Shown here piece after piece: positions 3,722-60,783 of a stretch of 64,000 bases of DNA (its first letter is position 1; the number at the start of each line of letters is the position of its first letter). The DNA is taken from assembly GCA_050251055.1 (NCBI GenBank), contig JBFWNL010000005.1:226451-290450 (forward strand), given 5' to 3'. The position numbers and the translations under genes were made by a program. The DNA is from Bacteriovoracia bacterium. Lineage in GTDB: Bacteria > Bdellovibrionota > UBA1018 > JBFWNL01. Below the pieces are notes generated by a model. The model made no database searches, was not told the DNA's origin, and saw nothing but the letters and a program-made list of their open reading frames with translations.

Positions 3722-3724
3722 AAA

Positions 3725-6324: not shown

Positions 6325-6336
6325 ATAAATTTCTCC

Positions 6337-9288: not shown

Positions 9289-9304
9289 AGATTAGACGTT
9301 TGAA

Positions 9305-9764: not shown

Positions 9765-9788
9765 GAAATCTCCTCTTGTTATGGTTGA

Positions 9789-26265: not shown

Positions 26266-26377
26266 ACCACTTTCCTCATGAAAACTCGAGAAAATCGGGT
26301 TGGCACATCCAACCCGCAGTGGCAAAAGCGTCTATAAAAACAGAGTAGATTTGCGAGTTGCAGCGGTCCGTCATGAA

Positions 26378-26797: not shown

Positions 26798-26802
26798 TCG
26801 TA

Positions 26803-27210
26803 TTACTCCTTACTGAAGGAACTAGGTTTATCAATGAGGTACAAATAGTGACCTTCCTCATACTGTCGCCCATCGTCCGATAGTTTGTCGGGCACCCAGA
26901 TGCTCTTTACCTGCGGATCATTCAACTGGGGGAACTTCGCAACTTTCTCATCTTTAGATGTCGCTTTGGGACCTTTCGATTCGTTGTTCTTATGAACAAT
27001 CAATCCGAACAACGCCCCCGTTGCCGCGCCGATCCCTGCACCTACAAGTGCGCTACTTCCTTTATCGCCCGCGCCGTATCCGATCAGAGCACCGCTTCCG
27101 GCTCCCACACCTGCGCCCAGCAGGACGCTATCGCGCATGGTTGCGCAGCCGCCGACCGCGGCCGCGCCGGCGGCCGCAAGAAGAATCACTCCGAATAACT
27201 GTCTCTTCAT
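26803..27210 (-). CDS. TraV/VirB7-like lipoprotein with glycine zipper
   Basis: Lipobox VGGC, Gly-zipper, C-terminal IWVPD...DG....GHYLYLID resembling TraV. Confidence 0.65.
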   Translation of the reverse strand: MKRQLFGVILLAAAGAAAVGGCATMRDSVLLGAGVGAGSGALIGYGAGDKGSSALVGAGIGAATGALFGLIVHKNNESKGPKATSKDEKVAKFPQLNDPQVKSIWVPDKLSDDGRQYEEGHYLYLIDKPSSFSKE

Positions 27211-27256
27211 AAAAATCTCCTTCTCAAATTTTCAATTTCCAAACCAGAAAGTGGCT

Positions 27257-29733: not shown

Positions 29734-29737
29734 AGGT

Positions 29738-30646: not shown

Positions 30647-31058
30647 GAGATTGTCCTTTCTTTTGGGTGGGACGCGGAGCATCCCGCACAAGAATGATCG
30701 CGCTCCCCTCAGTAGGAGTCGCAATGAGATCGAAGCTGAACCGCCTTCCTAAGAGGTAGACGAAAAGGTTTGATCTGGACGCCGAACTTAACGGGGAAAT
30801 TGCGAGATCGTTTTCCACGTATTCCAAACCAAAGGAGCCACTTTTACCCAAAATTACCTTGGTGGGCTTGATGGGAAAGCTAAGAACGGTACCACGTGTA
30901 GAGACTGCAACACGCGCGACTTTCTCGTCATCTAAGGCCACAATTTTTACGTCTGCCGCAAAGACGCGATGAGAGAAAAAGACGCAGAGGAAAAGACTGA
31001 TCACAATTAAGAAAAAGAAATCTAAATCGGGACCTCGGTATTTATTTCTTTCGTTCAT
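30636..31058 (-). CDS. VirB9-like secreted T4SS component (short)
   Basis: Signal peptide, TVLSFP...VILG, SNLFVY...RFSFDL; between VirB8- and VirB10-like genes. Confidence 0.6.
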   Translation of the reverse strand: MNERNKYRGPDLDFFFLIVISLFLCVFFSHRVFAADVKIVALDDEKVARVAVSTRGTVLSFPIKPTKVILGKSGSFGLEYVENDLAISPLSSASRSNLFVYLLGRRFSFDLIATPTEGSAIILVRDAPRPTQKKGQSRGR

Positions 31059-31593
31059 TTGAATCTCCTTCCTTCGAAGTCGGACTGACTTTGGTCAAAA
31101 TGAGCCCGTAAGGATTGCTGGTAGTCCTAGTGACCGAAGAAACAGAGACCTGAAGTGGGAATGAGAACGCCGAACGGATGCTACCGACAGTGATCAAGCG
31201 GTCGGAATCGACAGATACGACTGAACCATTTTGGGTGATTGCATTGATGACGATACGCTGGCGCATCTCGCGGCGCTTGAACTCAGATTGCTCTTGTTCC
31301 CGATTCTTCATTTCATCAAGCGAGAGGTACTCGCTTAGAGCATTTGATTCGGTGTTGAATCGTTGGCTTAGTGCTTCACGAATGAACGATTCGATTTCGC
31401 TAGGTGTCCTAGCCTCCGTCCCCGAAACAATGACTGTCGAATAACATGAACGTTCGATGAGAAGCGGGTCCTTAAGAGCCGCTTTGATGGCGACAATCGA
31501 CAAAGCAGTGAACGCGATCGAGAGAGCGAGCAGTGCCGTTCGCAATGTCACATTTTGCGAAGACACCTTGGCCCATGCTTGTGAAAACCTCAT
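31042..31593 (-). CDS. VirB8/TraE-like T4SS protein
   Basis: Single N-terminal TM and C-terminal RTTSNPYGL.L motif. Confidence 0.7.
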   Translation of the reverse strand: MRFSQAWAKVSSQNVTLRTALLALSIAFTALSIVAIKAALKDPLLIERSCYSTVIVSGTEARTPSEIESFIREALSQRFNTESNALSEYLSLDEMKNREQEQSEFKRREMRQRIVINAITQNGSVVSVDSDRLITVGSIRSAFSFPLQVSVSSVTRTTSNPYGLILTKVSPTSKEGDSNERKK

Positions 31594-31627
31594 AAGAATA
31601 CCTCCTGGCTTGCAAACGATGCCGAAA

Positions 31628-32626
31628 TTAAGATTTTGGCGACGTTTTATCGGTCTGATTAGTCTGAGATTGAGCTTGGTAACGTTTCGTTATTCGGTGA
31701 AACGCTTGAGCTTTTTTGTGATCTCGATCAAGTTGCTCTTGATCCGATAATTTTTTCTTATTCGTGTCCTGAAAGTAATTTTCTTTGAGCTGACTGTATC
31801 CGGAACCTACGGCCTCACTCCCAGTAGAAGCACCCTTTTTGACCGTGGCCGTTGCAAGCTTGCCTGGATTAAAAAGAGCGGCACCAGCCGCCATGCCCAT
31901 CATGGATGAAGCCATAGACGCCATTCCTTTTGAGGTAAGTGCCGTCACAACGATGGGAGTAAAAAGCAGCGAAGCCGCGAGGATTAGATTGTACGCAATG
32001 ACCGTTAAGAAGTTGATGTTGTGCTCTGGTTTATTCATTTCACCCAGCGCCGAGCTCCACAGGAGAGCCGCAAGCACCGCCCAAACAATTTTCCATGCAC
32101 AAACTTCAAACAACGATCGGTAAAGAGCCTTAGTAGCAACAGCGGTGGAGGGCAAAATAAAAAGGGCGATTAGAATCGGAGAAAAAATAAAAAGAAGAAC
32201 CCAAACAAAAATCACTCCGGCATTGGCAATGTAGACCGAAATATAAAGGAGGAAGAATGTGATGAAGGAAAAGCCCAGCATCAAGGTTTCTTTCACGGAA
32301 GTCCAAGAGAACGTAAATTCACTAAGCTTGTCTCCCATCTTGTCGAGAACGAGATGGAAGTCATTATAGTTTCCAATCTGAGAAACGAGTGCGTCTGTTA
32401 CGTCACTCAGGGAATTGGTAACCTCGGGGTAGCTATTGAGAAGAATTGCGGCAACCAGCGTGCGTCCAATAAGTTGCGGAATCCACGGGACACCACCCAG
32501 CGGTAGTTTAAAGTATTCAATCACCACTCCTAGGACCAAAAGCAGAGATGCTAGTCCGTAAAACATGCCGTTGAAGATCGCGTGAATCTGTTTTGCTTCT
32601 TGTGCTAGCCAGTTTAAGTCTGTCAT
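31628..32626 (-). CDS. VirB6/TrbL-like inner-membrane protein
   Basis: Polytopic (FSPILIALFILPST), Ala/Gly-rich tail. Confidence 0.75.
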   Translation of the reverse strand: MTDLNWLAQEAKQIHAIFNGMFYGLASLLLVLGVVIEYFKLPLGGVPWIPQLIGRTLVAAILLNSYPEVTNSLSDVTDALVSQIGNYNDFHLVLDKMGDKLSEFTFSWTSVKETLMLGFSFITFFLLYISVYIANAGVIFVWVLLFIFSPILIALFILPSTAVATKALYRSLFEVCAWKIVWAVLAALLWSSALGEMNKPEHNINFLTVIAYNLILAASLLFTPIVVTALTSKGMASMASSMMGMAAGAALFNPGKLATATVKKGASTGSEAVGSGYSQLKENYFQDTNKKKLSDQEQLDRDHKKAQAFHRITKRYQAQSQTNQTDKTSPKS

Positions 32627-32629
32627 TGG

Positions 32630-33322
32630 TTAAAACCTCGGGAGCTGAAATGAAGTGTCTTGTTGTTTCATCGCGATACTGAGAGCGTTGGAGGTCTCAA
32701 GAGCATTTCGCGTTTGCTCTTTATCTTTCCTGTTCTCAATTGCGAGCGACTGCGCCTGTATCTTAAGCCCCGTCGCTTGTGCGCGAAGACTTTGGTTCAT
32801 AACGGTCAACATCACTCCCAAGGACTGAGCTGTGAGCTTCTGAGCACCGCCAGGAGAAACAAGCCTGCTCATCTGCTTGATGCTTTCGCCAATTTCGTCG
32901 ACATCTCGGGTGTACTTATAAATGGAGTTATTGAGTGCGACGGCTTCTGCAACACTTTGATCTGAGTCGTGTTGAACCTGGGCATCTCTTGATGGCACAA
33001 TCACTCCATAAATACGCTCCAAAGCTCGCACCGCTTCCTGTACTCGCTCCCAGTCCCGGTAAATACCCGGATCCGTCCCTGGCCCAATCGTCCTCATGAG
33101 GTTTAAAGAGTCGTTGATCCCTCGGTTGATGTCCCGAATGAGGGAGAGGGTGTCCTGACCGGTTCCCATAATTGATCTGAGCTGGGCCAACTGCTGAATT
33201 GCGTTTGCAAGAATCTGTGTGAGCACCGCAACATCGCCACCGAAAAGATCCGCTTTTGCTTGGTGAATGGGAGAAAGCAGGAAAGTAACAGCGAGGATAA
33301 ATGTGGAAATCTTTTTCTTCAT
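32630..33322 (-). CDS. VirB5/TrbJ-like protein
   Basis: Signal peptide (AKA|DLFGGD), Gln-rich helices, position after VirB4. Confidence 0.6.
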   Translation of the reverse strand: MKKKISTFILAVTFLLSPIHQAKADLFGGDVAVLTQILANAIQQLAQLRSIMGTGQDTLSLIRDINRGINDSLNLMRTIGPGTDPGIYRDWERVQEAVRALERIYGVIVPSRDAQVQHDSDQSVAEAVALNNSIYKYTRDVDEIGESIKQMSRLVSPGGAQKLTAQSLGVMLTVMNQSLRAQATGLKIQAQSLAIENRKDKEQTRNALETSNALSIAMKQQDTSFQLPRF

Positions 33323-35736
33323 GAACTCTCCTTTTCTGAAGCCGCGACTCCGCGGGGGAATAGTTCGGCTAGTTTTTTCAGCCGATCGACATGCGAAAGA
33401 GACGGATGGGAAGAAGTATGCTCATCAAGTGCAGCAAGATCTTTTGGGTCTGTGGTGGCAATCCAGTATTCAAGGGGCGTAGATTCAATGACGGCGACCG
33501 TCCGATTTGCCTGAGCCAAGAGGAATGCTTCGGAGTAACGCCCTTTGTCTTGTCTCAAAGACTTCACCAAAGAAATCTCGTTGGGGTTTAGGTTCAACAC
33601 CTCTTCTAATCGTTTTCCGTCGACCTGTTGCTGAAGGAGAAGCCACTTAATTGAACAGTTAGGAAGAATGGCTCCAGCGATCTTCGACTTCGCGAAGTCA
33701 TCCAGATCCTGAGAAATCGCGATTGCCGAGGCGTAGTATTTTCTAAAAGTTCGAAAAACCTCTTCGATGAATACAAGGCCAGAATCATTCTTCAGAAGTT
33801 TCCAGCACTCATCAAAAACCAGAAATTTCATTTTTCCGCGATCCCTTTGAATTTCGCGCCAAACGAAGTCTGTGATCATAAACAGGCAAACCGCTTGCAG
33901 ATCTGGAAACGATTCCATGCCCTTTAAGTCAAAAGCCACAATGGGGCGGTTCAGCTCGATGTTTGTTTCACGATCCAAGAACTGACCAAACGGCGTGTTT
34001 CCGCACCACGGCGACAGAATCCGCCCATAACGCTTCACCTCAACGTCGGGATGAGCGAGAAGTAAATCCTGTAGATCGCTGAGCCTAGGAGTTCGCGATT
34101 TTTCGTAAACGCGTTGGATTGCCTCTTCAATTTCAGCACGATGGAGTTTTGGAATGCGCGCCTCATGATCCTCTTTGGTCATGAGTTCAATAAGTGAGAC
34201 AAAGAATTTGATTTTCTGACTGGATGGGGCCGATTCACCTGGTCCAAGATCAAAGGGGTTAAGGCAAAGCCCCGCACCGATACCGAGAAGGACATATTGA
34301 CCATCGAGGTTTTCGCAAAGTTTTTTGTAGGACCCTCCTATATCGACGAAGTAGATCTTAGGGGCTTCTTTGAGTGTTTGTAGGAGCAATAAGTTGGTAA
34401 GGAAGCTTTTGCCTGACCCACTGGACCCCGAAATTAACTGATTAAAATTCGTTAGGCCGGGGTCAAACGGATCGAAGCCCAAGAGACTCCCCATTCTTGA
34501 ACGAAGGAGGATACTTGGCTTCGACATGCCCTCCCAGGGGCCATATAGAGGTAGAAGATCTGCCAGGTTAGAAGTCTTTACGGCCTTTGCTCGCTCTTTA
34601 GATCTGGTGTTAGGGATCGCGCATTCCGAAAAGATGTCAAAAGCCGCGATGCTTTCTTCCATTCCCTCGGCACCTGAGAGACTTCGAATGCACATAAGAG
34701 TTTGAGCGACCTTTTCTTCAAGCTCTCCCAGGTTGTTTGACCTCAAAAGGATGTTCAGACTGACACGAAAAACGTTTTCTCCTTGAGCAATCATTTGCTC
34801 TAAGAGGGTTTCTAAGTCCTGAAGTTTTGCTTCACTTTCGATGTCAGAAACACCAGATCGTTTTCCGCGTGCCATCGAAAATGCTAAACGTCTCTGGGTT
34901 TGGAGCTTTTCAAGCTCCTTAGTTTGATTTGGTACATGGACGGTCAAAAACAACCGTGAGTTAAATGGTAAGTCCCTCAACGCAGAGGCCATTCCGGCTA
35001 CCGTTCGATCAGGCAGAGTTTTTAGAGAAATAAGGCGATGGTGAACTTCACCGATTGAGAATCCGCGTTCGTAGACGCCTACGTCGCTGAACAGAAGCGA
35101 AGAGCGAATATCTTCCGGATCATATGTACCTAAAGAAACCGGTCGATCAGGATTCCACTGCTCATAGATAAGCTCCAAAACTCGATTGGTTTCAATACGT
35201 CTTACTTCCAAGCCCAGCGAAGCAATCGACTGAGAGACGTTCTCTCGAAGTTGCTCTAAAAGTTCGACTTCTCGAACCATTCGAGCATCGGCAATCTTTG
35301 GAAAGTTAGCGGGCTTCGACAAAAGCTTCGGTGCATCGACCAATGATCTCGTCAGAGGCTTTCTGACAAGAAGAAGGAGTTCGTGCTTGGGTATGAAGCC
35401 TTCGCCATCGAGAGTTCTAAGTTTTTCGATGCGTGCCCGGGTTAACGCTTGTGCTGCTTCTGTACTGGATTCTTGGATAAGAGATTCATGCACATCTAGA
35501 ACAGATGCGTTTCCACCCTTAATATCCTGGACAAACTGGAGGTCTATCTCAGGAGGAAGCCCGTTTAGAAATTGGGCCACGCCTTGGGTGATGGAATTGA
35601 TTGTTTCATCTGAGATACACGAAATATCGGTTGGCTTGATCTTAAGTGCAAATCCCAGAGATCCATCTTGGAACAAAAGGCAGTCTTGTTCGATGCCCCA
35701 AAGTTCCAGTTCATCTGCAAGTGCTAGAGAATTCAT
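33319..35736 (-). CDS. virB4: VirB4/TraC conjugation ATPase
   Basis: Walker A GSSGSGKS, FVDIGGSY, LNPF, Walker B FDECW, RTFRKY...ISQ. Confidence 0.93.
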   Translation of the reverse strand: MNSLALADELELWGIEQDCLLFQDGSLGFALKIKPTDISCISDETINSITQGVAQFLNGLPPEIDLQFVQDIKGGNASVLDVHESLIQESSTEAAQALTRARIEKLRTLDGEGFIPKHELLLLVRKPLTRSLVDAPKLLSKPANFPKIADARMVREVELLEQLRENVSQSIASLGLEVRRIETNRVLELIYEQWNPDRPVSLGTYDPEDIRSSLLFSDVGVYERGFSIGEVHHRLISLKTLPDRTVAGMASALRDLPFNSRLFLTVHVPNQTKELEKLQTQRRLAFSMARGKRSGVSDIESEAKLQDLETLLEQMIAQGENVFRVSLNILLRSNNLGELEEKVAQTLMCIRSLSGAEGMEESIAAFDIFSECAIPNTRSKERAKAVKTSNLADLLPLYGPWEGMSKPSILLRSRMGSLLGFDPFDPGLTNFNQLISGSSGSGKSFLTNLLLLQTLKEAPKIYFVDIGGSYKKLCENLDGQYVLLGIGAGLCLNPFDLGPGESAPSSQKIKFFVSLIELMTKEDHEARIPKLHRAEIEEAIQRVYEKSRTPRLSDLQDLLLAHPDVEVKRYGRILSPWCGNTPFGQFLDRETNIELNRPIVAFDLKGMESFPDLQAVCLFMITDFVWREIQRDRGKMKFLVFDECWKLLKNDSGLVFIEEVFRTFRKYYASAIAISQDLDDFAKSKIAGAILPNCSIKWLLLQQQVDGKRLEEVLNLNPNEISLVKSLRQDKGRYSEAFLLAQANRTVAVIESTPLEYWIATTDPKDLAALDEHTSSHPSLSHVDRLKKLAELFPRGVAASEKESS

Positions 35737-36059
35737 GAGCGCACATCCTTTCTTTTCAACGAGGGAGGAGTTTCAAACTGAGAGGGTTCTAGAAATGCGC
35801 TGAGGTACTTAGGTCTAAGTTGGTACTTCACCCAATGAACAAGAAAGTTGTCGGGCTTTCCCTTTTTTCCGACTCTTAAAACAATGGCGAGTGCCAAGGT
35901 CGGAAGCCAGACAAGCAACAACTTCATTCCAGTTGATGCGAAAAGAAAATTGAGGACCGATAGCGAGATGAAGATCGCAAGAACATCTGGAATTTCATAA
36001 CCGGCAATCAGTAACTTTTTGTCTAGACACTGGCTTACAGGCGTCGATCTTAGAGACAT
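35733..36059 (-). CDS. VirB3/TraL-like membrane protein
   Basis: Two TM segments, KKGKPDNFLVHW, coupled to virB4. Confidence 0.7.
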   Translation of the reverse strand: MSLRSTPVSQCLDKKLLIAGYEIPDVLAIFISLSVLNFLFASTGMKLLLVWLPTLALAIVLRVGKKGKPDNFLVHWVKYQLRPKYLSAFLEPSQFETPPSLKRKDVRS

Positions 36060-36082
36060 CTATTAAACCTCCGGAAAGCGTG

Positions 36083-36113
36083 CTGGCCCCTGAGGCGATT
36101 CCCCAGGAGCCAG
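36083..36113 (-). terminator. Stem-loop after pilin gene (attenuator/mRNA stabiliser)
   Basis: Minus-strand CTGGCTCCTGGGG-AATCG-CCTCAGGGGCCAG pairs fully using G-U; no U-tail. Confidence 0.65.
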
Positions 36114-36125
36114 TCACAACGATTG

Positions 36126-36416
36126 CTAGTGGATTAGAGATCGAACAAATTCGATAATGCTCGGAGCACCGAAGCCTACAACGGCTCCCATAATGGCAAG
36201 AATCAGGTGTGATCTCGCGTTAGGACTCCCCGTAAAAAAGGAGAACGCGGCAAAAACCAATCCCAAGATCCCAACCAGAGGAAGGATGACGTTGATGAGT
36301 TTCGATTGAACTGCGGCTAAACTAGATTCGACGCTACAAAATCCAAGAGACGGAAAGGCTACAACGCCTGCAACCACTAGGAGCGCAGGCAAATACTTTC
36401 GAATGGGCGCTTTCAT
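36126..36416 (-). CDS. VirB2/TrbC pilin
   Basis: Signal peptide plus two hydrophobic helices ending GAVVGFGAPSII. Confidence 0.8.
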   Translation of the reverse strand: MKAPIRKYLPALLVVAGVVAFPSLGFCSVESSLAAVQSKLINVILPLVGILGLVFAAFSFFTGSPNARSHLILAIMGAVVGFGAPSIIEFVRSLIH

Positions 36417-36511
36417 GAAACGACCTTTCTTGATCCCTATTCTAAGGATCAAAGATTGAGCGTTTTATGTCCTCGTATGAGGAGCGCGTGACTTAGAGAA
36501 CGGGACTAGGT

Positions 36512-36859
36512 CTATCGCTGTGGAAAGAGACTCATGAACACTCGCCCACGGGGAAACCTAAAGCGGATTTCCAAATGGGTTTTTAGGTCCCTAGGGATAA
36601 AACCGGTGCCGACAGGATTCTGGAACTTAACTCCTTCTTCCCCGTCAACTTTCTTTGCGAAAACTGTGTACCGACCTTCATCATCGCGTGTTCGAACGAG
36701 GTAGTAGGTCATACTGTAAAGCGACCATAGCTTCAGCGCATAGTAGGAGGAGCCCTCATCCGTGAGGGCGTGCCCTGCAGGAAACGCTAACGCCAACGTG
36801 CCACCTTGCTTTCGGCCAAAGACGAGTTCGTGTTTTGAAACGATCGGTCTTGGGTTCAT
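36512..36859 (-). CDS. Hypothetical beta-rich protein (start revised)
   Basis: GAGGA RBS before MNPRP; two related halves (PAGHAL.../PVGTGF...). Confidence 0.65.
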   Translation of the reverse strand: MNPRPIVSKHELVFGRKQGGTLALAFPAGHALTDEGSSYYALKLWSLYSMTYYLVRTRDDEGRYTVFAKKVDGEEGVKFQNPVGTGFIPRDLKTHLEIRFRFPRGRVFMSLFPQR

Positions 36860-36896
36860 AATTCCTCTCTCTTTTTTTAAATCTAAAACAAAGTGG

Positions 36897-37073
36897 CTAT
36901 TTGGTTTTTGGTCGCTTTTGCTCGAGACTCTCATTTTGCGAATTCAATTTTTCGATCTGAAGAAGTCGCCAGAGCTTTTCGATGTATTTCTGAACTCTGG
37001 GGTTGCGTTCTTTTTCGGATTTAGAAATGGTTTCGCAAAACTTCTGAAACTCCTTTTCTATTTGGTTCAACAC
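36897..37073 (-). CDS. Small hypothetical protein (58 aa, absent from ORF track)
   Basis: GAGGAG RBS, GTG start, MLNQIEKEFQKFCETISKSEKERNPRVQKYIEKLWRLL... Confidence 0.55.
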   Translation of the reverse strand: MLNQIEKEFQKFCETISKSEKERNPRVQKYIEKLWRLLQIEKLNSQNESLEQKRPKTK

Positions 37074-37221
37074 AATTGCTCCTCATCACGAGTCTTTCAG
37101 CAAAAGGGCGGTAACCCTCTCTGCAGCGACTGCCAGGTTACGATTTGAAACCAACTCACACACCGAAAGCGACCCTAGAAGTGCATAGAAGTCTTCTTTG
37201 AACTTCAGAATCATGAGTTTA

Positions 37222-37824
37222 TTAGTCATGGCGCACATCCTTTTGACGAAGAGGAACCTCAACATAGAAGTAATCCCCCATGACCGGGTCGTTCACGATG
37301 ACACAAAGTACGGCTTCTCCAACTAGAGCCTCCCGCGAGGCGCGACCACTGAGTCCGTTCACGTCGAGTCCGACAACTTTCTTATTGTCTGACCATTCGG
37401 ACCAAATGTTCGTTGCTCTCAAGGCCTGAATGAACTCCCCGTTTTTCAGAGCGATGTAGGGGTAGACGTCAGAGGTTTTTCCCCCGCGGTACTCCTTAGG
37501 TACGTCGAACGACATCGTGACTTGATTAACCATTGGGCCGTAGATAACGATCGCCGGAGCTACGCTAAGGTCGCTTTTGCTAGCCATCGGGACGGCAAGC
37601 CGGTACTTCCTTTTTCCGGTGTCCATTAGGTTCATCGAAAACGAGTGCTCCATGTTTCCGCTTTGGTAGCTCATGTCGATTCGCAGGAGATCTGTCCGAA
37701 CTCCCGTACCTTGGTCCGAATTGGACTGGGTATTGGGTTTCGGCGTGATTCGAGGCTGGATTGGTTCAGGTCCACAAGCAGATACAAGTACCGGGATAAG
37801 AATCATCAAAATCATCTTCTTCAT
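37222..37824 (-). CDS. Lipoprotein, unknown function
   Basis: MKKMILMILIPVLVSAC lipobox, GGAGG RBS. Confidence 0.8.
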   Translation of the reverse strand: MKKMILMILIPVLVSACGPEPIQPRITPKPNTQSNSDQGTGVRTDLLRIDMSYQSGNMEHSFSMNLMDTGKRKYRLAVPMASKSDLSVAPAIVIYGPMVNQVTMSFDVPKEYRGGKTSDVYPYIALKNGEFIQALRATNIWSEWSDNKKVVGLDVNGLSGRASREALVGEAVLCVIVNDPVMGDYFYVEVPLRQKDVRHD

Positions 37825-37838
37825 TTTTTCCTCCGAGG

Positions 37839-37979
37839 TTAGAAACGGTCTGAACGCATGAAACGCTCATGAAAATGGGGCCGTGAAGGCTCTTCATCTT
37901 CGCCTGGTTTTTTCTGTGTACTGGTGCAGCCGGTGAGAACTCCGATTGCTGCTAAGATAACGAATAGGTAGTTTTTCAT
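37839..37979 (-). CDS. Small lipoprotein (46 aa, absent from ORF track)
   Basis: MKNYLFVILAAIGVLTGCTSTQKKPGEDEEPSRPHFHERFMRSDRF*, AAGGAG RBS, LTGC lipobox. Confidence 0.75.
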   Translation of the reverse strand: MKNYLFVILAAIGVLTGCTSTQKKPGEDEEPSRPHFHERFMRSDRF

Positions 37980-37995
37980 TTTGACTCCTTGATTC

Positions 37996-38151
37996 CTAAA
38001 ATCGTTGAATTTGAAACCAATGCTTTTGAAAGTACTGATCTTTCATTTCCCGCAATGCTTGTTCTTGCTCGTAGGCCAATGCGTTTTGCTCTTGGATGAT
38101 TCCAAACACGCGTTTGGCTAGGTAAGAAAAGCCGCTAATGACCTTTTTCAT
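37996..38151 (-). CDS. Small hypothetical protein (51 aa, absent from ORF track)
   Basis: MKKVISGFSYLAKRVFGIIQEQ...; TAATG overlap with upstream gene, GGAGG RBS. Confidence 0.6.
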   Translation of the reverse strand: MKKVISGFSYLAKRVFGIIQEQNALAYEQEQALREMKDQYFQKHWFQIQRF

Positions 38152-38357
38152 TAGGCAACCTCCAATTCCTTAAATAGGTTGGTGCGTTTGAACTCGGGTC
38201 CGAGTTCTCGAAGAACCGTGTCAGGAAACTGGACGTAGTATTCCTCGTTTCCAAATTCCGGGGCGTAGTTGCAAGATGCGCAGTGAGAGTAACTTTTTAA
38301 CCTCTCATACGCATTGTCTCCGCAACGTGGACAGCAGCTCAGACTAATCGGCTTCAC
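38151..38357 (-). CDS. Zn-ribbon small protein, first gene of transfer operon
   Basis: CPRCG...HCASCNY. Confidence 0.7.
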   Translation of the reverse strand: MKPISLSCCPRCGDNAYERLKSYSHCASCNYAPEFGNEEYYVQFPDTVLRELGPEFKRTNLFKELEVA

Positions 38358-38493
38358 TTACTTTCTCTCTTTCCGAGGGAATCAAAACTGGGGATCAGTT
38401 TTGTTCTTCCCTCAATAAGGTAGTTGCAAGAAAGTGAGGTGTTTGTGCCAGGTGCCGCTAAGGGTTCGAATCAAATTGAAGTTTTGAAATTCT

Positions 38494-38635
38494 CGCGCAA
38501 AAAATGCGGAAAATGTTCAGGCAAAAATGCGCGAGATGTTGCGCACGTAAAACACTAAGTGACTATGATCATTGATGACTTTAAAAATTTTCATGTGCGC
38601 AGATTTCTGCGCACTTGCGCACCAAAAGTTGCGCA
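38494..38635. promoter_or_regulatory. Cluster of TGCGCA palindromes (candidate enhancer sites)
   Basis: GTGCGCAGA-TT-TCTGCGCAC 38595-38614; TGCGCG-N6-TGCGCA 38528-38545; further TGCGCA at 38616 and 38630. Confidence 0.7.
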
Positions 38636-38656
38636 TTTTTGCGAATCGAAGAATAG

Positions 38657-38702
38657 TAAAAAGAAAAGAAAAACCCGCAATGGATCCAGTCCATCACGGG
38701 TT
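38657..38702 (-). terminator. Intrinsic terminator of signalling operon
   Basis: Minus-strand AACCCGTGATGGA-CTGGA-TCCATTGCGGGTT followed by TTTCTTTTCTTTTT. Confidence 0.85.
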
Positions 38703-38730
38703 AAGCGTATGAATAGAAGTTTTTGTTTAA

Positions 38731-40086
38731 CTAAGCTTCAAGGCGACCCAAAACCGCGCGTAAGGTACTTTCTTTCATTCCCAAACGGGCTGCTGCCTGC
38801 CTTTGAGATCCCGCGGTTTTTACTGTGCTAAGAATGAAAGCTTCTTTTTCAGCACGATGACGGGCATCTAGATCGGCCAGGGTGGAAGGCGGATTGATCT
38901 GAAGATCAATATCTCGAAATCTTTGATCTAGTTCAGAAGGACCAATAATTGAATCTGATGAGTTCACTGCCAACTGGCTAACACAGCCTTCAAGCTCACC
39001 AACATTGCCAGGCCAAGGATAGCTTTCGAGTATTCGAATTGCCTTAACTCGAAACGATTTTCTCTTTCCGGTCTCCTTTAAAAACCGTTGGCAGAAATGT
39101 TCGACAAGCAAACCAATGTCTTCCGGACGTTCTCGAAGAGGTGGAACGTCAATGGTCAGAAATTTCAGTCGGTAATATAGGTCTGGCAAAAACGTGCCAT
39201 TTTCTAAACGATCAATCAAATCAGGCTTAGACGCCGCAATGATACGGCAAGAAATATTCGTTTCAACTGTAGCTCCAACTCTTCGGATTTTCTTTTCTCG
39301 AATCGCTCTGAGAAGCGCGGCCTGAGCCTTAAGACTTAAGTGATGGACTTCGTCGAGAAACACGGTGCCGGTCCCGGCCATCTCCAAGATACCAACTTTT
39401 CTGTTCGCTGCTCCTGTGAAAGCACCTTTTTCGTAGCCGAAAAGTTCTGATTCGACCAAATTTCCATCTGCGAATGCCGCGCAATTTACAGAGAAGAGCT
39501 GTTCCTTAGGTCCTCCGTGAATTGCTTTTGCTACCAACTCTTTTCCAGATCCGGTTTCGCCCAGAATTAGCACTGGTGCCGAATTTGAACGGTAAGAAAG
39601 GCATTTTTGAGCGACCTCTGCCATCTTCTGAGATTGACCGATCATCCCGACAGACTTGAGCAGCTCCGAGTTATAGGCTTTGTTTACAGTAGCCTTGAAG
39701 AGTTTCAAACTTTCATCGTATCTCTTACACGCTAGCTCTAATGCCGACTTTAAAGTTTCAAGGTCTTCGTCCTTATTGATGAAATCCACGGCGCCGAGCC
39801 TGTACATTTCTTTAAGCGCTTCTCGGGTATTATCGCACGAATATACGATAATAATCGTTTCGGCATTGATTTCGCGCATCTTTGCCGCCGTTATCGCTCC
39901 ATTCATTCGCGGCATTTGATAATCGAGGAGCACAACCGCGAAATCTCCTTCTGCGGCCGCCAATTTTGAAATTCCTTCTTCGCCCGAAGATGCGGTGTCT
40001 ACCCGGTAACCCCATTCTTCAAGTAAGGCCTCAGTGGCCTTCAAGTTAGAGACATCATCATCTACGGTTAAAATTCGGTATTTCAT
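38731..40086 (-). CDS. Sigma54-dependent (NtrC-family) response regulator
   Basis: Receiver LLDYQMP, GETGSGKE, intact GAFTGA, FLDE, DLYYRL, WPGNVGEL, Fis-type HTH. Confidence 0.96.
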   Translation of the reverse strand: MKYRILTVDDDVSNLKATEALLEEWGYRVDTASSGEEGISKLAAAEGDFAVVLLDYQMPRMNGAITAAKMREINAETIIIVYSCDNTREALKEMYRLGAVDFINKDEDLETLKSALELACKRYDESLKLFKATVNKAYNSELLKSVGMIGQSQKMAEVAQKCLSYRSNSAPVLILGETGSGKELVAKAIHGGPKEQLFSVNCAAFADGNLVESELFGYEKGAFTGAANRKVGILEMAGTGTVFLDEVHHLSLKAQAALLRAIREKKIRRVGATVETNISCRIIAASKPDLIDRLENGTFLPDLYYRLKFLTIDVPPLRERPEDIGLLVEHFCQRFLKETGKRKSFRVKAIRILESYPWPGNVGELEGCVSQLAVNSSDSIIGPSELDQRFRDIDLQINPPSTLADLDARHRAEKEAFILSTVKTAGSQRQAAARLGMKESTLRAVLGRLEA

Positions 40087-41522
40087 ACGCTCATTTCCCT
40101 TAAGGATTCTTGGAAACGTGGTTCAGCTTCAGGTTGAAACTGAATTCTAAATTCTGTGCCGACACTAAGCGCGCTATTGACTGCAATGGTAGCTTCGAAA
40201 TCGTCGCACAGTTTTTTTACAATTGTGAGGCCTAGTCCTGTCCCTCTAGCTGGTTTGGTCGTGAATTCGCCGTCGAAGATTTTATTAAGATGCTCTGTAG
40301 GAATGCCAGCACCATTGTCTTTAACTGTAAGGGTGGGATAGCCCTCTAAAGCCGAAACCAAAATTTCAATTCTTCCCGTATTGTTTTCTACGGCATCTAA
40401 GGAATTTCGAACTAAGTTGTCGATGATTCTGTAAAATTGGACCTTTGGAATCTTTGCGAATGCAGAGTTGGTTTCTATAGTGCAAGTAACTTCAATCCCA
40501 CGGACGTGAAAGTCCGGAGTTTTTTTAAGATCGTTAACGAATTCGGCCGCCTCGTGGCTTGGATCGCAACCTTCCAGGAGTACTCCTGAATTATGAAGAC
40601 CCGGTCCGATAACTTGAATCTGTCGAAGGATGTCACCCATTCTTTCCAGCGATCTTTGAGTTAGTTTTAATAGAACTGGATCAGCTAAGCCGGTGCGATT
40701 TGCCCTTGCGGCAAGAACGGTTAGAAACTTGGTTATTTGAGAGTACGGAGTTTTTAGGTCGTGCCCAATTTCTTTGACCATTGTCAGTTGTGTTTTCATT
40801 CGAGCGTCACGGGCCGCAATTTCGGTCAGCCGGGCAATGTCGAGGTGTAACTTGGAAACAGCCTGATCCACGGTCGTCATTTCGGTGAAAGGTACAAGGC
40901 TATTTTGTTGGGGATTAGTGGGAGTCTCTTTTATCCGCTTTGCCCATTTATCCATTGTGTCTTTTATCAAGGACACAGTTCGCTGTTGAGTTGATGAAAG
41001 GCCCAACGCAATAATAGAAAACACTACTCCTAAGAAAACTAAAAAGACGCTTAATAGCGGCCAGTTTTGTGGATTGTTAGTCCTCAGCTCGACATATCCG
41101 AATAAGCTCTCTTTAAGATCATCATTAAAATAAACCGGCTGAAGATAAGTAACGTACCCTGAAATCAAATCCCAACATGGCTTGCCAGGGGTTTTGCACT
41201 TGTTTGGAATATCGACCAAATCATTAGCGTAAATCGTTTTGTAATCGGGATCGCGAACAACCACGTATTCGCCTTCGCTGAGTCCTAAAGTTCGCTTCAT
41301 TTGAAATTGCGCATCGCGAATATTTTTATCTAAGATCATTGGTCTGAAAGCTCGTGCAACTGCTTGTGTAAGAGTTGAAATACGTGTTTCAGCCGAATGC
41401 ATCGAAAGGTAAAAGAAAAACGGAAGCGATACCGCAGCCGTCAGCGCTAAGCCTATCAAAGCCCACTTTTTTGATAAATGTTGCAATGCTGTAGAAAGGC
41501 TTTGCTGAACCGTGGGTTTCAT
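40083..41522 (-). CDS. Sensor histidine kinase
   Basis: Two TM segments flanking a ~110-aa periplasmic domain, HDLKTP H-box, NLVRNS, DNGAGI, GTGLGL. Confidence 0.93.
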
Positions 41523-43009
41523 TTGCCCGCCAATCCCTTGAAGCGGATTTTGGAGAAAGTCACTGATTCGTCGGAAGTTGGTATATCTCTAAAATCGAGT
41601 TCTGGACCCCCAATGGCCAAGGTAGACAGATGGAAGAGCGGAAGGACATGGCCCTTAATCGTTGCGTCGGTCATAATTGAGCGCATCATTTTGAGCCGTT
41701 TACTTGAGTCAGATTCTTTTCTCGCTGCATCCAATCGCGCAACGAACGGCTCATTTCCAGATCTAACAACAGGCGTATCACCTTCGAAGTAGTACGACAT
41801 CGCACCTTCTGGATCAGGATCGGCCATCCCCATAGTGCTGACATAAATGTCGTAATCACCTTTCCTTTTGTGTTCACCCAACTTATCGAGCGTCGTGAAG
41901 ATATATTCAGGCGCAATGCCTAAAGCATCAGTCAGAACGGCTTTGATGTTCTTTTGTAAGATGGGATTCACGCGAGTAGACGCGAGCAAAACTCTCAAAG
42001 GGGTCCGCTTGAATCGTTCAGGCATTGAATTGTTTGAGTTTGGAACTGGTGTAGGAAATGAATCGTCAAATAACTGATAGCCTATCGGGAACACTTGAGC
42101 GGTAGCGGAAAAGCCCGAAAGCCCTTCTGTGAGTTTGGTTCTGTTAATGCTCTTGTATAGATATCGAAATAAGGCCGTTCCATCTGCGGTTACAAAATTC
42201 TTAGATAGTTGAAGAAGAAAAATCTTATCTAAAGGACGAGTCCAAACTTCGTATTTTTTGCTTTTGTATGTCGACAGTAGGTCTCCCGGAATTAAAGAAT
42301 TTACTTCGACGAGATTTGCCCAGCTGTCCTCAAGCATCACTTTTTGCAAATCGAGGGTACCCTCTGGTTTCCGAATAATGATCTCCTCGGGCATTTTGTC
42401 ATTTCCGAAAATCCACTGAGGATTACGTTTTAAAACCAATTCTGCATTCGTGTCTTTGCTTAAGTAGAAAGCACCGGTTGTAGTGGAAAGGTCAACGTTA
42501 CCGTCAGCTTTCACCTTTAAGACGCCGAAGTTGGGTTCCGTAAGTTTTCCGAGAAGATTACTGGCGGACGTCGGTGTGGAGAGATGAAACTCAACTACGG
42601 ATTCGCTTGGAGCAGTTATGTCTTTAACAATATTTATAAGACTGCGCAGATCTTCCGGGTACTTTTTAAATCCTCGCTCGAAACTCTTTTTTACGTCAGC
42701 GGCAGTTAGTTTTGTGCCGTCCGACCATTTCACATCTTTTCGAAGCTTGAATCTGTAAACCTTTTCTGCGACTGCTTCCCACGATTCAGCGAGAGCGCCC
42801 ATGAATTGTTTGTCGTGGTCCCATTGTACGAGCCTCGACGCGAGTCCGTAAGATAGATCCATGTCCGGAATAGTTACAATCTGGACCGGATCCACCGGGT
42901 ACGAATACGACATGTAAGTTCGAACTTGTTTCATAGATCTCTTTTCAATTGCCTCTGCTGCCGAAACAAAAAATTGCACTGTCAGACACGCGAAAACCAA
43001 AAAACGCAT
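41519..43009 (-). CDS. Family-5 (OppA/DppA-like) periplasmic solute-binding protein, orphan
   Basis: Signal peptide, LAESWE...YRFKLRKDVKWSDGTKLTAADVKKSF, TGAFYL...LVLKRNP; no permease/ATPase nearby. Confidence 0.9.
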   Translation of the reverse strand: MRFLVFACLTVQFFVSAAEAIEKRSMKQVRTYMSYSYPVDPVQIVTIPDMDLSYGLASRLVQWDHDKQFMGALAESWEAVAEKVYRFKLRKDVKWSDGTKLTAADVKKSFERGFKKYPEDLRSLINIVKDITAPSESVVEFHLSTPTSASNLLGKLTEPNFGVLKVKADGNVDLSTTTGAFYLSKDTNAELVLKRNPQWIFGNDKMPEEIIIRKPEGTLDLQKVMLEDSWANLVEVNSLIPGDLLSTYKSKKYEVWTRPLDKIFLLQLSKNFVTADGTALFRYLYKSINRTKLTEGLSGFSATAQVFPIGYQLFDDSFPTPVPNSNNSMPERFKRTPLRVLLASTRVNPILQKNIKAVLTDALGIAPEYIFTTLDKLGEHKRKGDYDIYVSTMGMADPDPEGAMSYYFEGDTPVVRSGNEPFVARLDAARKESDSSKRLKMMRSIMTDATIKGHVLPLFHLSTLAIGGPELDFRDIPTSDESVTFSKIRFKGLAGK

Positions 43010-43021
43010 ACAACGCTTTCG

Positions 43022-43059
43022 TAGTAGGCATTTCGAAGGTGAATTCGAGATGCCTACTA
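43022..43059. repeat. 16-bp stem-loop between peptide gene and binding-protein gene
   Basis: TAGTAGGCATTTCGAA-ggtgaa-TTCGAGATGCCTACTA, one mismatch. Confidence 0.8.
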
Positions 43060-43072
43060 TTTCGATTTGGGT

Positions 43073-43216
43073 TTACTTTTCGCAGGTAGCGCCACTACCT
43101 GCTTCACGACTATGTTCTCCAGCCTGCGCGGCGAGCCCGAGAAGTGATTTCGCACCTCCAGAGAACGCAGTGAGTGCCAAAAGAACTGCTACGATTGACT
43201 TCTTGAGGAAAGACAT
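43073..43216 (-). CDS. Putative secreted precursor peptide (47 aa)
   Basis: GAAAGGGG RBS; MSFLKKSIVAVLLALTAFSGGAKSLLGLAAQA|GEHSREAGSGATCEK with Sec-like signal and AQA site; directly after YcaO gene. Confidence 0.75.
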   Translation of the reverse strand: MSFLKKSIVAVLLALTAFSGGAKSLLGLAAQAGEHSREAGSGATCEK

Positions 43217-43238
43217 AAAACCCCTTTCTTCCTCTACG

Positions 43239-44279
43239 TTATGGGACAAAATGCGGGAGAGAGCACAATGCCCTCCCTCCACAAACTTTTTCTAAATGTT
43301 CAAAGTTGATCCAGCCACGAGAAGCGGCCGCTTCCGCGCTTCCAAAAAATAGATCCTGCACTTCCTTGCTGGCGCAATGTGCGACGAAAAGAGGGCCAAA
43401 CTGGAAGTCAGAAAAAGAGCTTTTCGGCAGCTTGTTCTTCAGTGCTCTGGAGCGTTCATTCCAATTTCTTGATGCTGCTGAGAACAAAATCGAATTTCCA
43501 AACAACCAAGTAGGGAGCTTAGAGTGATATGCGTAGTAGACGGAGTGGCCTTCAGGGGAGCTTGGTTTGTCCAAATCAGGAGGAGAAATAAATCCTTGTT
43601 CAGCAAAATCGGCAATTCTGCAAACTTCGGCCAGCGCTCTTTCAATGGCTCCTCGCAGAGAACTCGATGAAGCTTGGGAGGAAAAAGCAAAACCATCTTT
43701 GTCCTGCAAAATGGTTACAACACTAGGTGCAGTTCCTAATGTTGAAGTCAAAATTCTGAGCTGGTTAAAGCGCGGTGCGAGGCTCAGTTCTTTTGATGCC
43801 CATTCAATTAGGTCTTTCGGTAAGGTGTGGGCGGCTATTTCGAGAAATGGGGTCTGACTGAGCCAATGGAGCAAAATTGAATCCCGCTCCAGTAGTTCCG
43901 TTTGCGCTGCCGCTCGAGCTTTCTGGGGAGTTAGATGCGCGGCCCAGCCGCTGGAAGACCTAAGGTCTGGATTGAGTTTCTTGGCTAATTTGAAAACACA
44001 ACGTTCAACCGCCTCTGAGATACTCTTCTGAAGCGCCAAAAGTTCAAAATCGCTTTCACCGTAACCGGATGCGACCACTTCGCCTTCAGCCTCAATCTTT
44101 GTCATGATCGAGTGCCTATTAAATCTGTAGCCCTGCATGCGTTTAGCGGGGCTAGAGGCAGTGATCTTGAATGTCAGAGGGGACAGACCGGGAAAAGTGA
44201 ATTGAACGCCCTTAAAGAATTCTGTGAGCTTTTGGCTTACGAGCACGGACCGGATGATTTCTATAATGCTCAGGCTCAC
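43239..44279 (-). CDS. Stand-alone YcaO-like enzyme (start revised to GTG 44279)
   Basis: SGYGES...ALQKSISEAVER, SSGWAAH...ELLERDS, AIERALAE ATP/Mg motifs; Pro-containing C-terminus LPHFVP; AAAGGAG RBS. Confidence 0.85.
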   Translation of the reverse strand: MSLSIIEIIRSVLVSQKLTEFFKGVQFTFPGLSPLTFKITASSPAKRMQGYRFNRHSIMTKIEAEGEVVASGYGESDFELLALQKSISEAVERCVFKLAKKLNPDLRSSSGWAAHLTPQKARAAAQTELLERDSILLHWLSQTPFLEIAAHTLPKDLIEWASKELSLAPRFNQLRILTSTLGTAPSVVTILQDKDGFAFSSQASSSSLRGAIERALAEVCRIADFAEQGFISPPDLDKPSSPEGHSVYYAYHSKLPTWLFGNSILFSAASRNWNERSRALKNKLPKSSFSDFQFGPLFVAHCASKEVQDLFFGSAEAAASRGWINFEHLEKVCGGRALCSLPHFVP

Positions 44280-44317
44280 AGGTACTCCTTTCAGAAAGTT
44301 CACTCGCGGAACATTAG

Positions 44318-44334
44318 AGCAACCCCTGAGCCAA
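44318..44334 (-). promoter_or_regulatory. Sigma54 -24/-12 promoter of the ycaO operon
   Basis: Minus-strand TTGGCTCAGGGGTTGCT, exact GG-N10-GC spacing. Confidence 0.8.
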
Positions 44335-44430
44335 TCACTGATGCAACGTATAGAATCTGGCTAAGCGTCCGAAGAGTAAGGGCTTTTAACTCCTATGACG
44401 CAATAAGTCAAATATTTGTTTGAGGTCAAA

Positions 44431-44620
44431 AATGCGCAAGTTATTGCGCATTTAGTTCGAGATGATAGGGGCCTGTGGCGAAAAAGCTAAACGCTTCCAA
44501 ATAGATATGCGCAAGATAAAGAGGTGCGCAGGAAACTGCGCACCTCTAGACTGGCATCCTAAAAAAGCTATGGAAAACAAATATTTACCCAACCCACGAC
44601 CATGCGCAAGAAAGTGCGCT
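44431..44620. promoter_or_regulatory. TGCGCA-N6-TGCGCA palindromes (candidate enhancer sites)
   Basis: 44433-44450, 44525-44542 (11-bp perfect arms), 44603-44620 (one mismatch), half-site at 44508; 100-290 bp upstream of the sigma54 promoter. Confidence 0.75.
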
Positions 44621-44711
44621 AGACGAAGCCGGTTACTTCAAGAGCCGCTCAAGGTCAGTCGAATGCTCCCTGCGACTGAATTCGGGTCATTGGGCTCAAA
44701 GTCGGTCTAAT

Positions 44712-45248
44712 CTACTTTAAGAACACTTCGTCAACTGGTGTTTTTGCGACATGGTTCACATAATTACTGAGCGTTTTCATCGCTACGCCGAGCATGACCT
44801 CTAAAACATGTTTTTGTGTATAGCCTTGAGAGAAAAAGGCGGAAAGGTCTTGCTCACTTGGATTACCTCTTGAAGAGACAATATTTTTTGTAAATGCGCC
44901 TAATGCGTTTAATTTGGGATCTGCAAGGGTAGCCCCCATCTTAATCTTCTCAATGCTATCAGAGTCCATTTTTGCAATATTTCTAGCCAACATAGAGTGC
45001 GCTGCTAAACAATAACCACACTCGTTTTCCTTGCTGACAGACAGAAGAACAACCTGTTGTTCGATGGGTGAAAACGACGTTTTTGAGAAAAAATCAGAAA
45101 GCGCGAGATAAGAACTTAATACCGCCTTACTCTCAGCCATGACTCCCATGAGATTAGGAACAAAAGACATGGCCCCCTTTACGCCTTCCAAAAGTGATTT
45201 GCTTTCACTTGGACTTGTTTCTGGTGAATGAACTTTAAAATCTGACAT
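44712..45248 (-). CDS. Carboxymuconolactone decarboxylase/AhpD-family protein
   Basis: FVPNLMGVMAES, ENECGYCLAAH, KTLSNYVNH. Confidence 0.9.
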   Translation of the reverse strand: MSDFKVHSPETSPSESKSLLEGVKGAMSFVPNLMGVMAESKAVLSSYLALSDFFSKTSFSPIEQQVVLLSVSKENECGYCLAAHSMLARNIAKMDSDSIEKIKMGATLADPKLNALGAFTKNIVSSRGNPSEQDLSAFFSQGYTQKHVLEVMLGVAMKTLSNYVNHVAKTPVDEVFLK

Positions 45249-45292: not shown

Positions 45293-45395
45293 GAGCAAGC
45301 GGTGAATTGCTTAAACGAGAATGAAGCGGCGCGGCTGGCTTCTTAGCTGGGATACCGCTTCAAGAAACGGACGAACAAAGCTACAATCAAACAAG

Positions 45396-45863
45396 ATGTC
45401 CGAGAAACGTAAGCCGCCCAAAAAACTTGCTGCCATGACGGAGCTTCTGGAAGATCCTCAAGTCCAGTCGTGGCTGGCTATTATGGGCGCCTTCAAATCT
45501 GTTTTGACTGAACTTGAAAAAGGTCTAATGGGTGACGGCTTACATGTTTCCAGGTTTCAAATTCTATTTTATCTTTACTTCCAGCCGCCGCTCTCTGCGG
45601 CTGATATTGCTCGAAAGCTTTTGGTGACTCGAGGGAATATTTCGATGTTTTTAAAGAGGCTTGAGAAGGACAAGCAAATCGTGGTTTGCCCAACCAGTCC
45701 TAGCATGCAAAGACCTCTTTACAGACTCAGTGAAGAAGCTGAACGTCAGTTCGAAAAAATCTTTCCCGACCATATCAAGAGGGTGAAAAAACTTGTTCCT
45801 GCTTTGCCTAAAGCGGTCGTTCAGTCTTTGCACAAGCTCGGCAAGGCTGATTCTGAAATCTAG
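45396..45863 (+). CDS. MarR-family regulator (start uncertain)
   Basis: SRFQILFYLYF..LSAADIARKLLVTRGNISMFLKRLEK. Confidence 0.88.
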   Translation: MSEKRKPPKKLAAMTELLEDPQVQSWLAIMGAFKSVLTELEKGLMGDGLHVSRFQILFYLYFQPPLSAADIARKLLVTRGNISMFLKRLEKDKQIVVCPTSPSMQRPLYRLSEEAERQFEKIFPDHIKRVKKLVPALPKAVVQSLHKLGKADSEI

Positions 45864-46303
45864 ATCGCAGCAATCGTTATCTGTTTTAGAGTTTGAAGCG
45901 AATCCTGTGGCAATACAGGCATGGAAGCTTTCACCCTCCGTATGTGAGCCGGCAGGAGTTTTTCGAAAAATGCGTTGCCTTTGATTGTAAGCATGTAACA
46001 CGGACGCTTTGCTGAAGATGATTCAGGGCACTTCGTCACAAGGCCATCTGCAATCATTCGCCGTAAAAACATAGACATGTTCGACCTGGTTACAAGCATT
46101 TTTCGTGAAAGCTCGATTGGAGCTAGAGACCCTTCAAAATAAAGAAAAAAGAGAAGCTGGAATCTTGAATAGGTGCAGCCATCTTTCAAGAGTGCTTCCT
46201 CAAAAGCTCTGTAAAGAGTTTGGAATGCGTTCATCAGGGCGCGCCACGATTCGACCTCCGATGACTTCAAGAGTGAAGATAGCTTTTTTTTTGAGGTTTT
46301 CAA
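45860..46303 (-). CDS. MarR-family regulator, paralog of the convergent gene
   Basis: SRFQLLFFLYF..LAPIELSRKMLVTRSNMSMFLRRMIADGLV. Confidence 0.88.
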   Translation of the reverse strand: MKTSKKKLSSLLKSSEVESWRALMNAFQTLYRAFEEALLKDGCTYSRFQLLFFLYFEGSLAPIELSRKMLVTRSNMSMFLRRMIADGLVTKCPESSSAKRPCYMLTIKGNAFFEKLLPAHIRRVKASMPVLPQDSLQTLKQITIAAI

Positions 46304-60781: not shown

Positions 60782-60783
60782 TT

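Follow-up and report, generated by a model that had tools for sequence, protein, structure and literature searches.

Paired TGCGCA sites before two operons

The 64,000-nucleotide stretch of DNA analysed here (hereafter the window; G000:C5:226451-290450 in our numbering) comes from contig JBFWNL010000005.1 of a Bacteriovoracia bacterium assembly (GCA_050251055.1) and has a G+C content of ~46% nearly throughout, compared with ~58% in the rest of the genome. It carries an operon for a signalling system that includes a sensor kinase and an NtrC-type activator and, directly downstream on the same strand, a string of genes for conjugal transfer. A preliminary description, made from the sequence alone, had noted that the same palindromic motif, TGCGCA-N6-TGCGCA, precedes both operons. 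The features that bear on this observation are as follows.

44603-44620: distal pair, TGCGCA-N6-TGCGCT (1 mismatch), ~300 bp upstream of the predicted start site
44525-44542: exact pair, TGCGCA-N6-TGCGCA
44508-44513: lone TGCGCA half-site, 11 bp from the pair at 44525
44433-44450: exact pair, promoter-proximal, ~100 bp from the -24 box
44318-44333, minus strand: canonical sigma-54 promoter of the signalling operon, TGGCTC-N5-TTGCT, with AGGGG as spacer
43239-44279, minus strand: YcaO-like protein, 346 amino acids, start taken as the GTG at 44279
43073-43216, minus strand: small open reading frame, 47 amino acids from an ATG, in the gap between the YcaO gene and the binding-protein gene
41519-43009, minus strand: family-5 solute-binding protein, peptide-binding type
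40083-41522, minus strand: sensor histidine kinase
38731-40086, minus strand: NtrC-type activator with a receiver domain, an AAA+ sigma-54 interaction domain containing GAFTGA, and a C-terminal Fis-type helix-turn-helix
38672-38702, minus strand: intrinsic terminator, 13-pair stem and T run, which follows the activator gene and ends the signalling operon
38596-38635: site cluster, an exact pair at 38596-38613 plus TGCGCA at 38616 and 38630
38528-38545: pair, TGCGCG-N6-TGCGCA (1 mismatch)
38494-38510: degenerate pair, CGCGCA-N5-TGCGGA
38151-38357, minus strand: first gene of the transfer operon, a 68-amino-acid zinc-ribbon protein with homologues in relatives

All of the palindromes and degenerate half-sites that the preliminary description had listed are present, and the check it had proposed, counting the motif across window and genome, bore out their enrichment. 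The hexamer TGCGCA itself occurs 22 times in the window, compared with 15.4 +/- 3.5 expected, with 11 of the 22 falling in 38540-38635 and 44433-44608. When the hexamers are counted as pairs separated by six nucleotides, with at most one mismatch, there are five in the window (at 38528, 38596, 44433, 44525 and 44603) versus 0.18 expected; all five are confined to two intergenic stretches, and a count of five was reached in none of 100 shuffles. The whole 3.77-Mb genome contains 34 such pairs, six of them exact, and three of the exact pairs lie within the window. Across spacings of 0 to 20 compared genome-wide, N6 alone gives more than two exact TGCGCA pairs, and the cluster of paired sites is unique in the genome. 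The remaining three exact pairs fall in DNA that looks coding when judged by eye, with no open reading frame call; two of them, at C6:90416 and C6:91342, are separated by ~900 bp and have almost the same surroundings, which by eye are probably paralogous genes, and were treated as coding coincidences. We found no further members of the regulon in the host chromosome, given that the other exact pairs sit in such coding-looking stretches.

The statistics bear directly on the simplest alternative, namely that the repeats arose by chance or are structural, as RNA or DNA hairpins or terminator-like elements, with no regulatory protein involved. A terminator scan does pick out two pairs as short hairpins that lead into T runs. 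The stems are just 6 bp, however, and no Rfam family matches 38000-45000 at E values up to 1. Moreover, the half-site YGCGCR is itself kept in the window and in the related loci L001, L002, L005 and L028 (see below), which is more than complementarity alone would demand. Together with the result of the shuffles, these points make a chance or purely structural origin hardly credible.

One cluster lies 100-290 bp upstream of the sigma-54 promoter of the signalling operon, and the other lies between the terminator of that operon and the transfer operon. Multiple dyads placed 80-300 bp upstream of a promoter and occurring above chance are the mark of upstream activator sequences, and this is the arrangement found here; in both layout and location the sites resemble the upstream activator sequences of an NtrC-type activator. 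The correctly spaced sigma-54 promoter that had been reported downstream of the 44433-44620 palindromes is indeed there: it has the right GG-N10-GC spacing, matches the consensus at 10 of 11 positions, and sits 53 nt before the GTG start at 44279, which carries an AAAGGAG ribosome-binding site. Transcription from it is predicted to begin near 44307. A CCTTAGCC-like box is found at 44352-44360 on the minus strand, 28 nt upstream of the -24 box, and a similar box occupies the same position in L003, L006, L011, L012, L028, L030, L032 and L036.

A near-consensus IHF site had also been reported between these sites and the promoter. The sequence is present (44406-44418, plus strand, one mismatch to WATCAANNNNTTR); as evidence it is at chance level, and we give it little weight because matches of equal quality (one mismatch) number 78 in the window, or one per 821 bp. 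The genome has four genes of the HU/IHF family.

The domain content of the encoded activator is that of a sigma-54-dependent regulator. Its AAA+ domain (PF00158, E 3.9e-53) contains GAFTGA at residue 221, and its receiver domain matches PF00072 (E 3.4e-22). The C-terminal sequence ...QRQAAARLGMKESTLRAVLGRL is taken as a helix-turn-helix from the alignment; the HTH_8 model missed E 0.001 in the window protein and was detected in the activator of one relative (L047). The protein scores far below every NCBIfam equivalog cut-off (the best being ZraR, at 276 bits compared with a cut-off of 760), and it is not an orthologue of a named activator such as NtrC, ZraR, AtoC or LuxO. As for its partner, rpoN is present in a single copy, and the genome contains 36 canonical TGGCA[CT]-N5-TTGC[AT] sites compared with 1-7 at each other spacing from 0 to 25. 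The host clearly uses canonical sigma-54 promoters.

The other products of the signalling operon would suit a peptide input. The YcaO-like protein scores 44 bits against PF02624 (cut-off 25.7), with the SagD-type model far under its own cut-off. The 47-residue product of the small open reading frame has a hydrophobic, signal-peptide-like N-terminus and a Gly/Ser-rich tail ending in GSGATCEK, and each of the 16 related loci examined has a comparable small open reading frame in that gap, with a tail of the ...[ST]C type or rich in glycine. It is a likely candidate for the precursor of the sensed signal peptide.

Palindromes and recognition helices in related loci

About 40 relatives of the YcaO-like protein were found, several bearing the name of a Bacteriovorax or Bdellovibrionota assembly, and 34 were aligned. 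From these we recovered 26 genome loci and 14 metagenome loci, the clear relatives being L001-L012 in the first set and L028-L037 in the second; many of the relatives are fragmentary metagenome assemblies. The four-gene operon is kept in L001-L003, L005, L006, L008-L010, L030, L031 and L033, and in part on shorter contigs, such that operon and sigma-54 promoter are conserved together across loci of Bdellovibrionota and Oligoflexia. At a distance of 43-111 nt upstream of the YcaO gene, a canonical sigma-54 promoter of the form TGGCyC-N5-TTGCT is found in the window, in 11 of the 12 genome loci and in 6 of the 10 metagenome loci; the other four metagenome loci either lack most or all of the upstream sequence or show a TGGCAG variant.

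The palindromes fall into classes. The sequence YGCGCR-N6-YGCGCR (class I) is found in the window, L001, L002, L005 and L028; CGACGAA..TTCGTCG in L004, L006, L009 and L033; dyads of the ACGCA..TGCGT type in L003, L011, L012 and L030, with a variant in L031; and CATTCAAA..TTTGAATG in L010. The recognition helices of the activators, which read xES[ST]LR, P[AV][ST]TL[RK]S or [RK]PSSL[NQ]T, group in the same way as the palindromes, as would be the case if the encoded activator were the protein that reads the sites. In particular, L006 shares both helix and motif with L009 and L033 at an overall identity of just 45-49%, no closer than to the other classes.

The preliminary description's observation that one motif precedes both operons extends to the relatives, in which each lineage repeats the arrangement with a palindrome of its own, upstream of the first transfer gene as well as before the signalling operon. 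Transfer genes lie downstream and on the same strand as the signalling operon in the window, L002, L010, L082 and L083, and upstream and divergent from it in L004, L005, L009, L031 and L033. In all five tandem loci the most frequent 7-mers common to the two upstream regions are words of the lineage motif; this result is a ranking of words only, from which no statistic was drawn since the random-piece controls overlapped the test region.

Might a different regulator of the element be the protein that binds these palindromes? The island has several further DNA-binding genes, and the candidates include a MarR protein (45321-46303), a helix-turn-helix protein encoded near the integrase, and the 68-residue zinc-ribbon protein. 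Relatives of the CMD-like gene (44712-45248) and of the MarR gene at 45860-46303 were found in none of L001-L012 or L028-L037, a search in which the second MarR gene (45321-45863) and the integrase-side helix-turn-helix genes were not queried, and the conserved surroundings of the sites are the signalling operon and the transfer genes only. L001 retains the class I motif with no homologue of the zinc-ribbon protein. In addition, activator sites typically take the form of multiple dyads placed 100-300 bp ahead of a sigma-54 promoter, and the class of the motif tracks the recognition helix of the activator. Binding by one of these other regulators is thus quite improbable. The activator encoded at 38731-40086 is the most economical candidate, because relatives of the CMD-like gene and of the one MarR gene queried were not found and because the motif persists in L001 where the zinc-ribbon homologue does not.

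A putative promoter of the transfer operon

Two further features lie between the second cluster of sites and the first transfer gene.

38425-38462, minus strand: promoter element CTTA-N8-TGGCAC-N15-TTGCA, 68 nt before the first transfer gene
38375-38413, minus strand: predicted stem-loop in the 5' leader of the transfer operon, -22.9 kcal/mol, z -4.75, just downstream of the TTGCA box

The preliminary description had proposed that the activator also switches on the conjugation genes. The shared palindrome before the transfer operon agrees with this proposal; what differs is the promoter. Neither the window nor any of L001-L012 has a canonical sigma-54 promoter (at least 9 of 11 consensus positions) before the transfer operon, and the element found instead, TGGCAC-N15-TTGCA, amounts to GG-N20-GC rather than GG-N10-GC, with its boxes one helical turn too distant. 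The activation of conjugation genes by this activator would depend on an unproven type of promoter, given that the transfer operon is without a canonical one. The tetranucleotide CTTA precedes the TGGCAC box by 8 nt, and the transcript is predicted to begin near 38414-38417.

Elements of the N15 type recur in front of transfer genes across the relatives. We found them in L001 (as N14), L002, L004, L005, L009, L010, L031 and L033, in five elements located through a marker protein of the transfer operon, and in an element with the permuted gene order activator, 139-residue protein, binding protein, YcaO, kinase, for a tally of the window plus 14 relatives with N15 (one of them N14). The sequence of the N15 spacer is, as judged by eye, not conserved. 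Other relatives have TGGCAC-N3-TTGCA (three loci), TGGCAC-N4-TTGCT (three loci) or TGGCAC with no partner (one locus), and distant relatives show either canonical -24/-12 spacing (L065 and L090) or N5 with TTGTC replacing TTGCA (L055 and L091). Of the 38 distinct elements scored, 22 have a TGGCAC box ahead of the transfer genes. An activator gene lies alongside in 10 of the 14 loci that were extended, and likewise in L047.

Exact TGGCAC-N14/15-TTGCA occurs once in the host genome, and we rejected N15 as a general class of host promoter, its two genomic sites being background when compared with the 36 at N5. Across 401 sampled genomes of the phylum, the strict form of the transfer-promoter pattern was found in 5, as opposed to 1 for a reversed control, and the marker protein of this family of transfer elements was found in 34. 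Matches to the N15 pattern in G281 (L045) and in L026 lie in unrelated contexts and were treated as chance.

Validated sigma-54 promoters with poor -12 regions do exist, as listed in PMC12316311. The E. coli promoters of dcuD, xapB (p3) and glpQ covered there resemble the transfer promoters in having a strong TGGCA-type -24 box and a deviant -12 region; unlike them, the transfer promoters keep a perfect TTGCA, displaced by 10 bp away from the -24 box (or by 1-2 bp towards it), and do so in many independent elements. The sigma-54 literature, in the excerpts consulted, describes spacers of 4-7 nt only and makes no mention of a displaced consensus -12 box.

We weighed the possibility that the activator binds both clusters and that another factor, for example a protein of the element or a member of the sigma-70 family recognizing TTGGCA-17 bp-TGCAAY, reads the boxes of the transfer promoter. 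The activator would then act indirectly or negatively; it might, for instance, form a barrier, counter a repressor, or tie up sigma-54 polymerase in a silent complex. Amongst the closer relatives the spacing is N15, N3 or N4 and never N5, and N15 elements are at background level in the genome, as would suit such a factor; moreover, the distance from TTGCA to a GTGAGAGG-like leader is roughly constant (by eye) while TGGCAC moves, so that the boxes behave as separable modules. Nevertheless, the boxes match the -24 and -12 consensus of sigma-54 exactly, the distant relatives have canonical or N5 spacing, and an activator gene is always nearby, from a family known to work only through sigma-54. 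The -10-like TGCAAY has no A at position 2, a promoter scan of 38100-38800 found no sigma-70-like promoter, and no sigma-factor gene was seen among the element genes scanned. We regard the involvement of another factor as unlikely, if the least unlikely of the alternatives. Judged from their sequences, the transfer promoters most likely form a sigma-54-type family in which the -24 box is fixed and the -12 box is out of register.

Several minor observations concern the same region. Hairpins with an ACAAA-like loop occur at the matching position of the leader in L002 and L010 (by eye). In L001, the first transfer gene (9387-9905, plus strand) encodes a protein with a C4 zinc-finger motif that is DksA/TraR-like by eye and replaces the 68-residue zinc-ribbon protein, and the sites before the transfer operon of this locus (9099-9311) are arranged in ~100-bp units that appear tandemly duplicated.

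A proposed peptide circuit on an integrative element

The setting of the two operons is that of a mobile element, as the following features indicate.

24797-38150, minus strand: rest of the transfer and integration gene string, with pilin-like, TraL-like, TraC/VirB4 ATPase, TrbI-like, FtsK-like ATPase, excisionase-type helix-turn-helix and integrase genes
63268-63618, minus strand: transfer-messenger RNA (tmRNA) gene, marking the point at which G+C returns to the genome level

The long minus-strand string that starts at 38357 is closed by the excisionase-type helix-turn-helix gene and the integrase gene at 24797-26325. Because the low G+C content stops at the tmRNA gene, we read the low-GC stretch as an island, or as a tandem series of islands, occupying a classical integration site. 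An integrase, an excisionase-type helix-turn-helix protein (HTH_17), TraC/VirB4, TrbI and an FtsK-like ATPase, together with foreign G+C content and a tmRNA edge, identify an integrative conjugative element, on which we identified neither a relaxase nor an oriT.

Our overall proposal is that the paired sites serve the activator of this low-GC integrative conjugative element (38731-40086) as upstream activator sequences, and that they form part of the circuit set out below; we put the probability of this reading at roughly 0.68. From the domain content of the proteins, the YcaO-like enzyme would mature a small exported peptide, the product of the 47-residue open reading frame, which the periplasmic binding protein and the kinase would sense, and the kinase would then phosphorylate the activator. 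Comparative evidence suggests that the phosphorylated activator would assemble on the 44433-44620 sites and drive the promoter at 44333-44318, raising expression of its own operon. The same activator, once at a sufficient level, might act from the 38494-38635 sites to turn on the transfer operon through TGGCAC-N15-TTGCA, and this promoter may fire only at high activator levels because its -12 box is out of register. The positive feedback put forward in the preliminary description is structurally possible in such a circuit, since the activator gene lies inside the operon that it would activate; the feedback itself is conjectural.

Several points count against the proposal. Binding by the activator, dependence on rpoN and the transcription of both operons are all argued from sequence comparison. 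The motif classes, apart from the 7-mer count, were read by eye, and the covariation of helix and motif partly follows the overall phylogeny and is not fully independent evidence. Amongst the relatives, L002 has no recognisable sigma-54 promoter before the YcaO gene, and the L005 activator (10146-11483) gave no match to the GAFTGA pattern, the rest of the protein aligning. Of the 38 related elements scored, 16 gave no combination of TGGCAC with TTGC[AT] in the flanking sequence examined, and TGGCAC itself is present in 5 of these 16. Finally, deletions that change the spacing abolish activity of the nifH promoter, and by established knowledge the N15, N14, N3 and N4 spacings should not work with sigma-54.

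The proposed circuit has parallels in several well-studied systems. Like the NtrC (NR-I) sites at glnAp2 and the upstream activating sequences of the NtrC family in general, the sites comprise several dyads of ~17-18 bp located 100-300 bp upstream of a GG-N10-GC promoter. Like NtrC, the activator combines a receiver, an AAA+ domain with GAFTGA and a Fis-type helix-turn-helix, and its gene lies within the operon that would be activated, making autoregulation possible. In contrast to the NtrC consensus, the site here is TGCGCA-N6-TGCGCA, with pairs 70-100 bp apart; the system is also carried by a mobile element and coupled to what is probably a peptide-sensing module.

Amongst mobile elements, the system closest in function is the RteA/RteB pair of CTnDOT, in which RteB is a member of the NtrC family. 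The kinase and the response regulator, both encoded by the element, are required for excision and transfer, and RteB activates a downstream regulatory gene in a cascade that runs from RteC to the excision operon and on to tra (PMC3809561). The operon that encodes RteB is under translational attenuation and is not regulated by RteB itself (PMC3809561). Unlike in CTnDOT, the sites in the window stand directly before both the transfer operon and the activator's own operon, and the input resembles a modified peptide.

Conjugation is under quorum or pheromone control in the Ti plasmid (TraR/TraI), the enterococcal pheromone plasmids and ICEBs1 (RapI-PhrI), in which transfer is coupled to a secreted signal with feedback, and LuxO illustrates that an NtrC-type activator can end a quorum-sensing relay. 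We know of no conjugative element whose genes unite a YcaO-type peptide maturase and family-5 binding protein with a kinase and sigma-54 activator, and our literature searches turned up no sigma-54 or YcaO circuit for any conjugative element in the Bdellovibrionota.

A broader and more tentative idea, against which we would lay odds, is that the transfer promoters represent a new architecture shared across conjugative elements of the Bdellovibrionota. Their sigma-54 boxes, separated by N15 or placed 1-2 bp too close, would be fed by the element's own activator and either used by sigma-54 under strong input or read by another factor, and with the input from YcaO-modified peptide, binding protein and kinase the whole would constitute a peptide quorum circuit for conjugation in predatory Gram-negative bacteria. 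If sigma-54 polymerase does use such promoters under strong input, they would provide a built-in threshold, such that conjugation would follow only after the signalling loop had latched. An out-of-register -24/-12 promoter would also challenge the rule of fixed spacing, and could reveal how geometry sets a threshold of activation. The circuit as a whole, if true, would be a complete wiring diagram for the decision to transfer in a family of conjugative elements of predatory bacteria, comprising signal peptide, sensor, activator, DNA sites and two promoters, and the lineage-specific pairs of site and helix would offer a natural set of orthogonal activator-operator pairs.

The low-GC island, which measures 68 kb and is inserted beside the tmRNA gene, also carries cargo, including a kdp operon with KdpD/KdpE (342-8028), a serine recombinase, more integrases and ParB-like genes. 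At 60745-62377, on the plus strand, a gene for a peptide-modifying enzyme of the MbnB/TglH/ChrH type is followed by a DUF2063 gene, forming a second and unrelated modified-peptide locus on the island.

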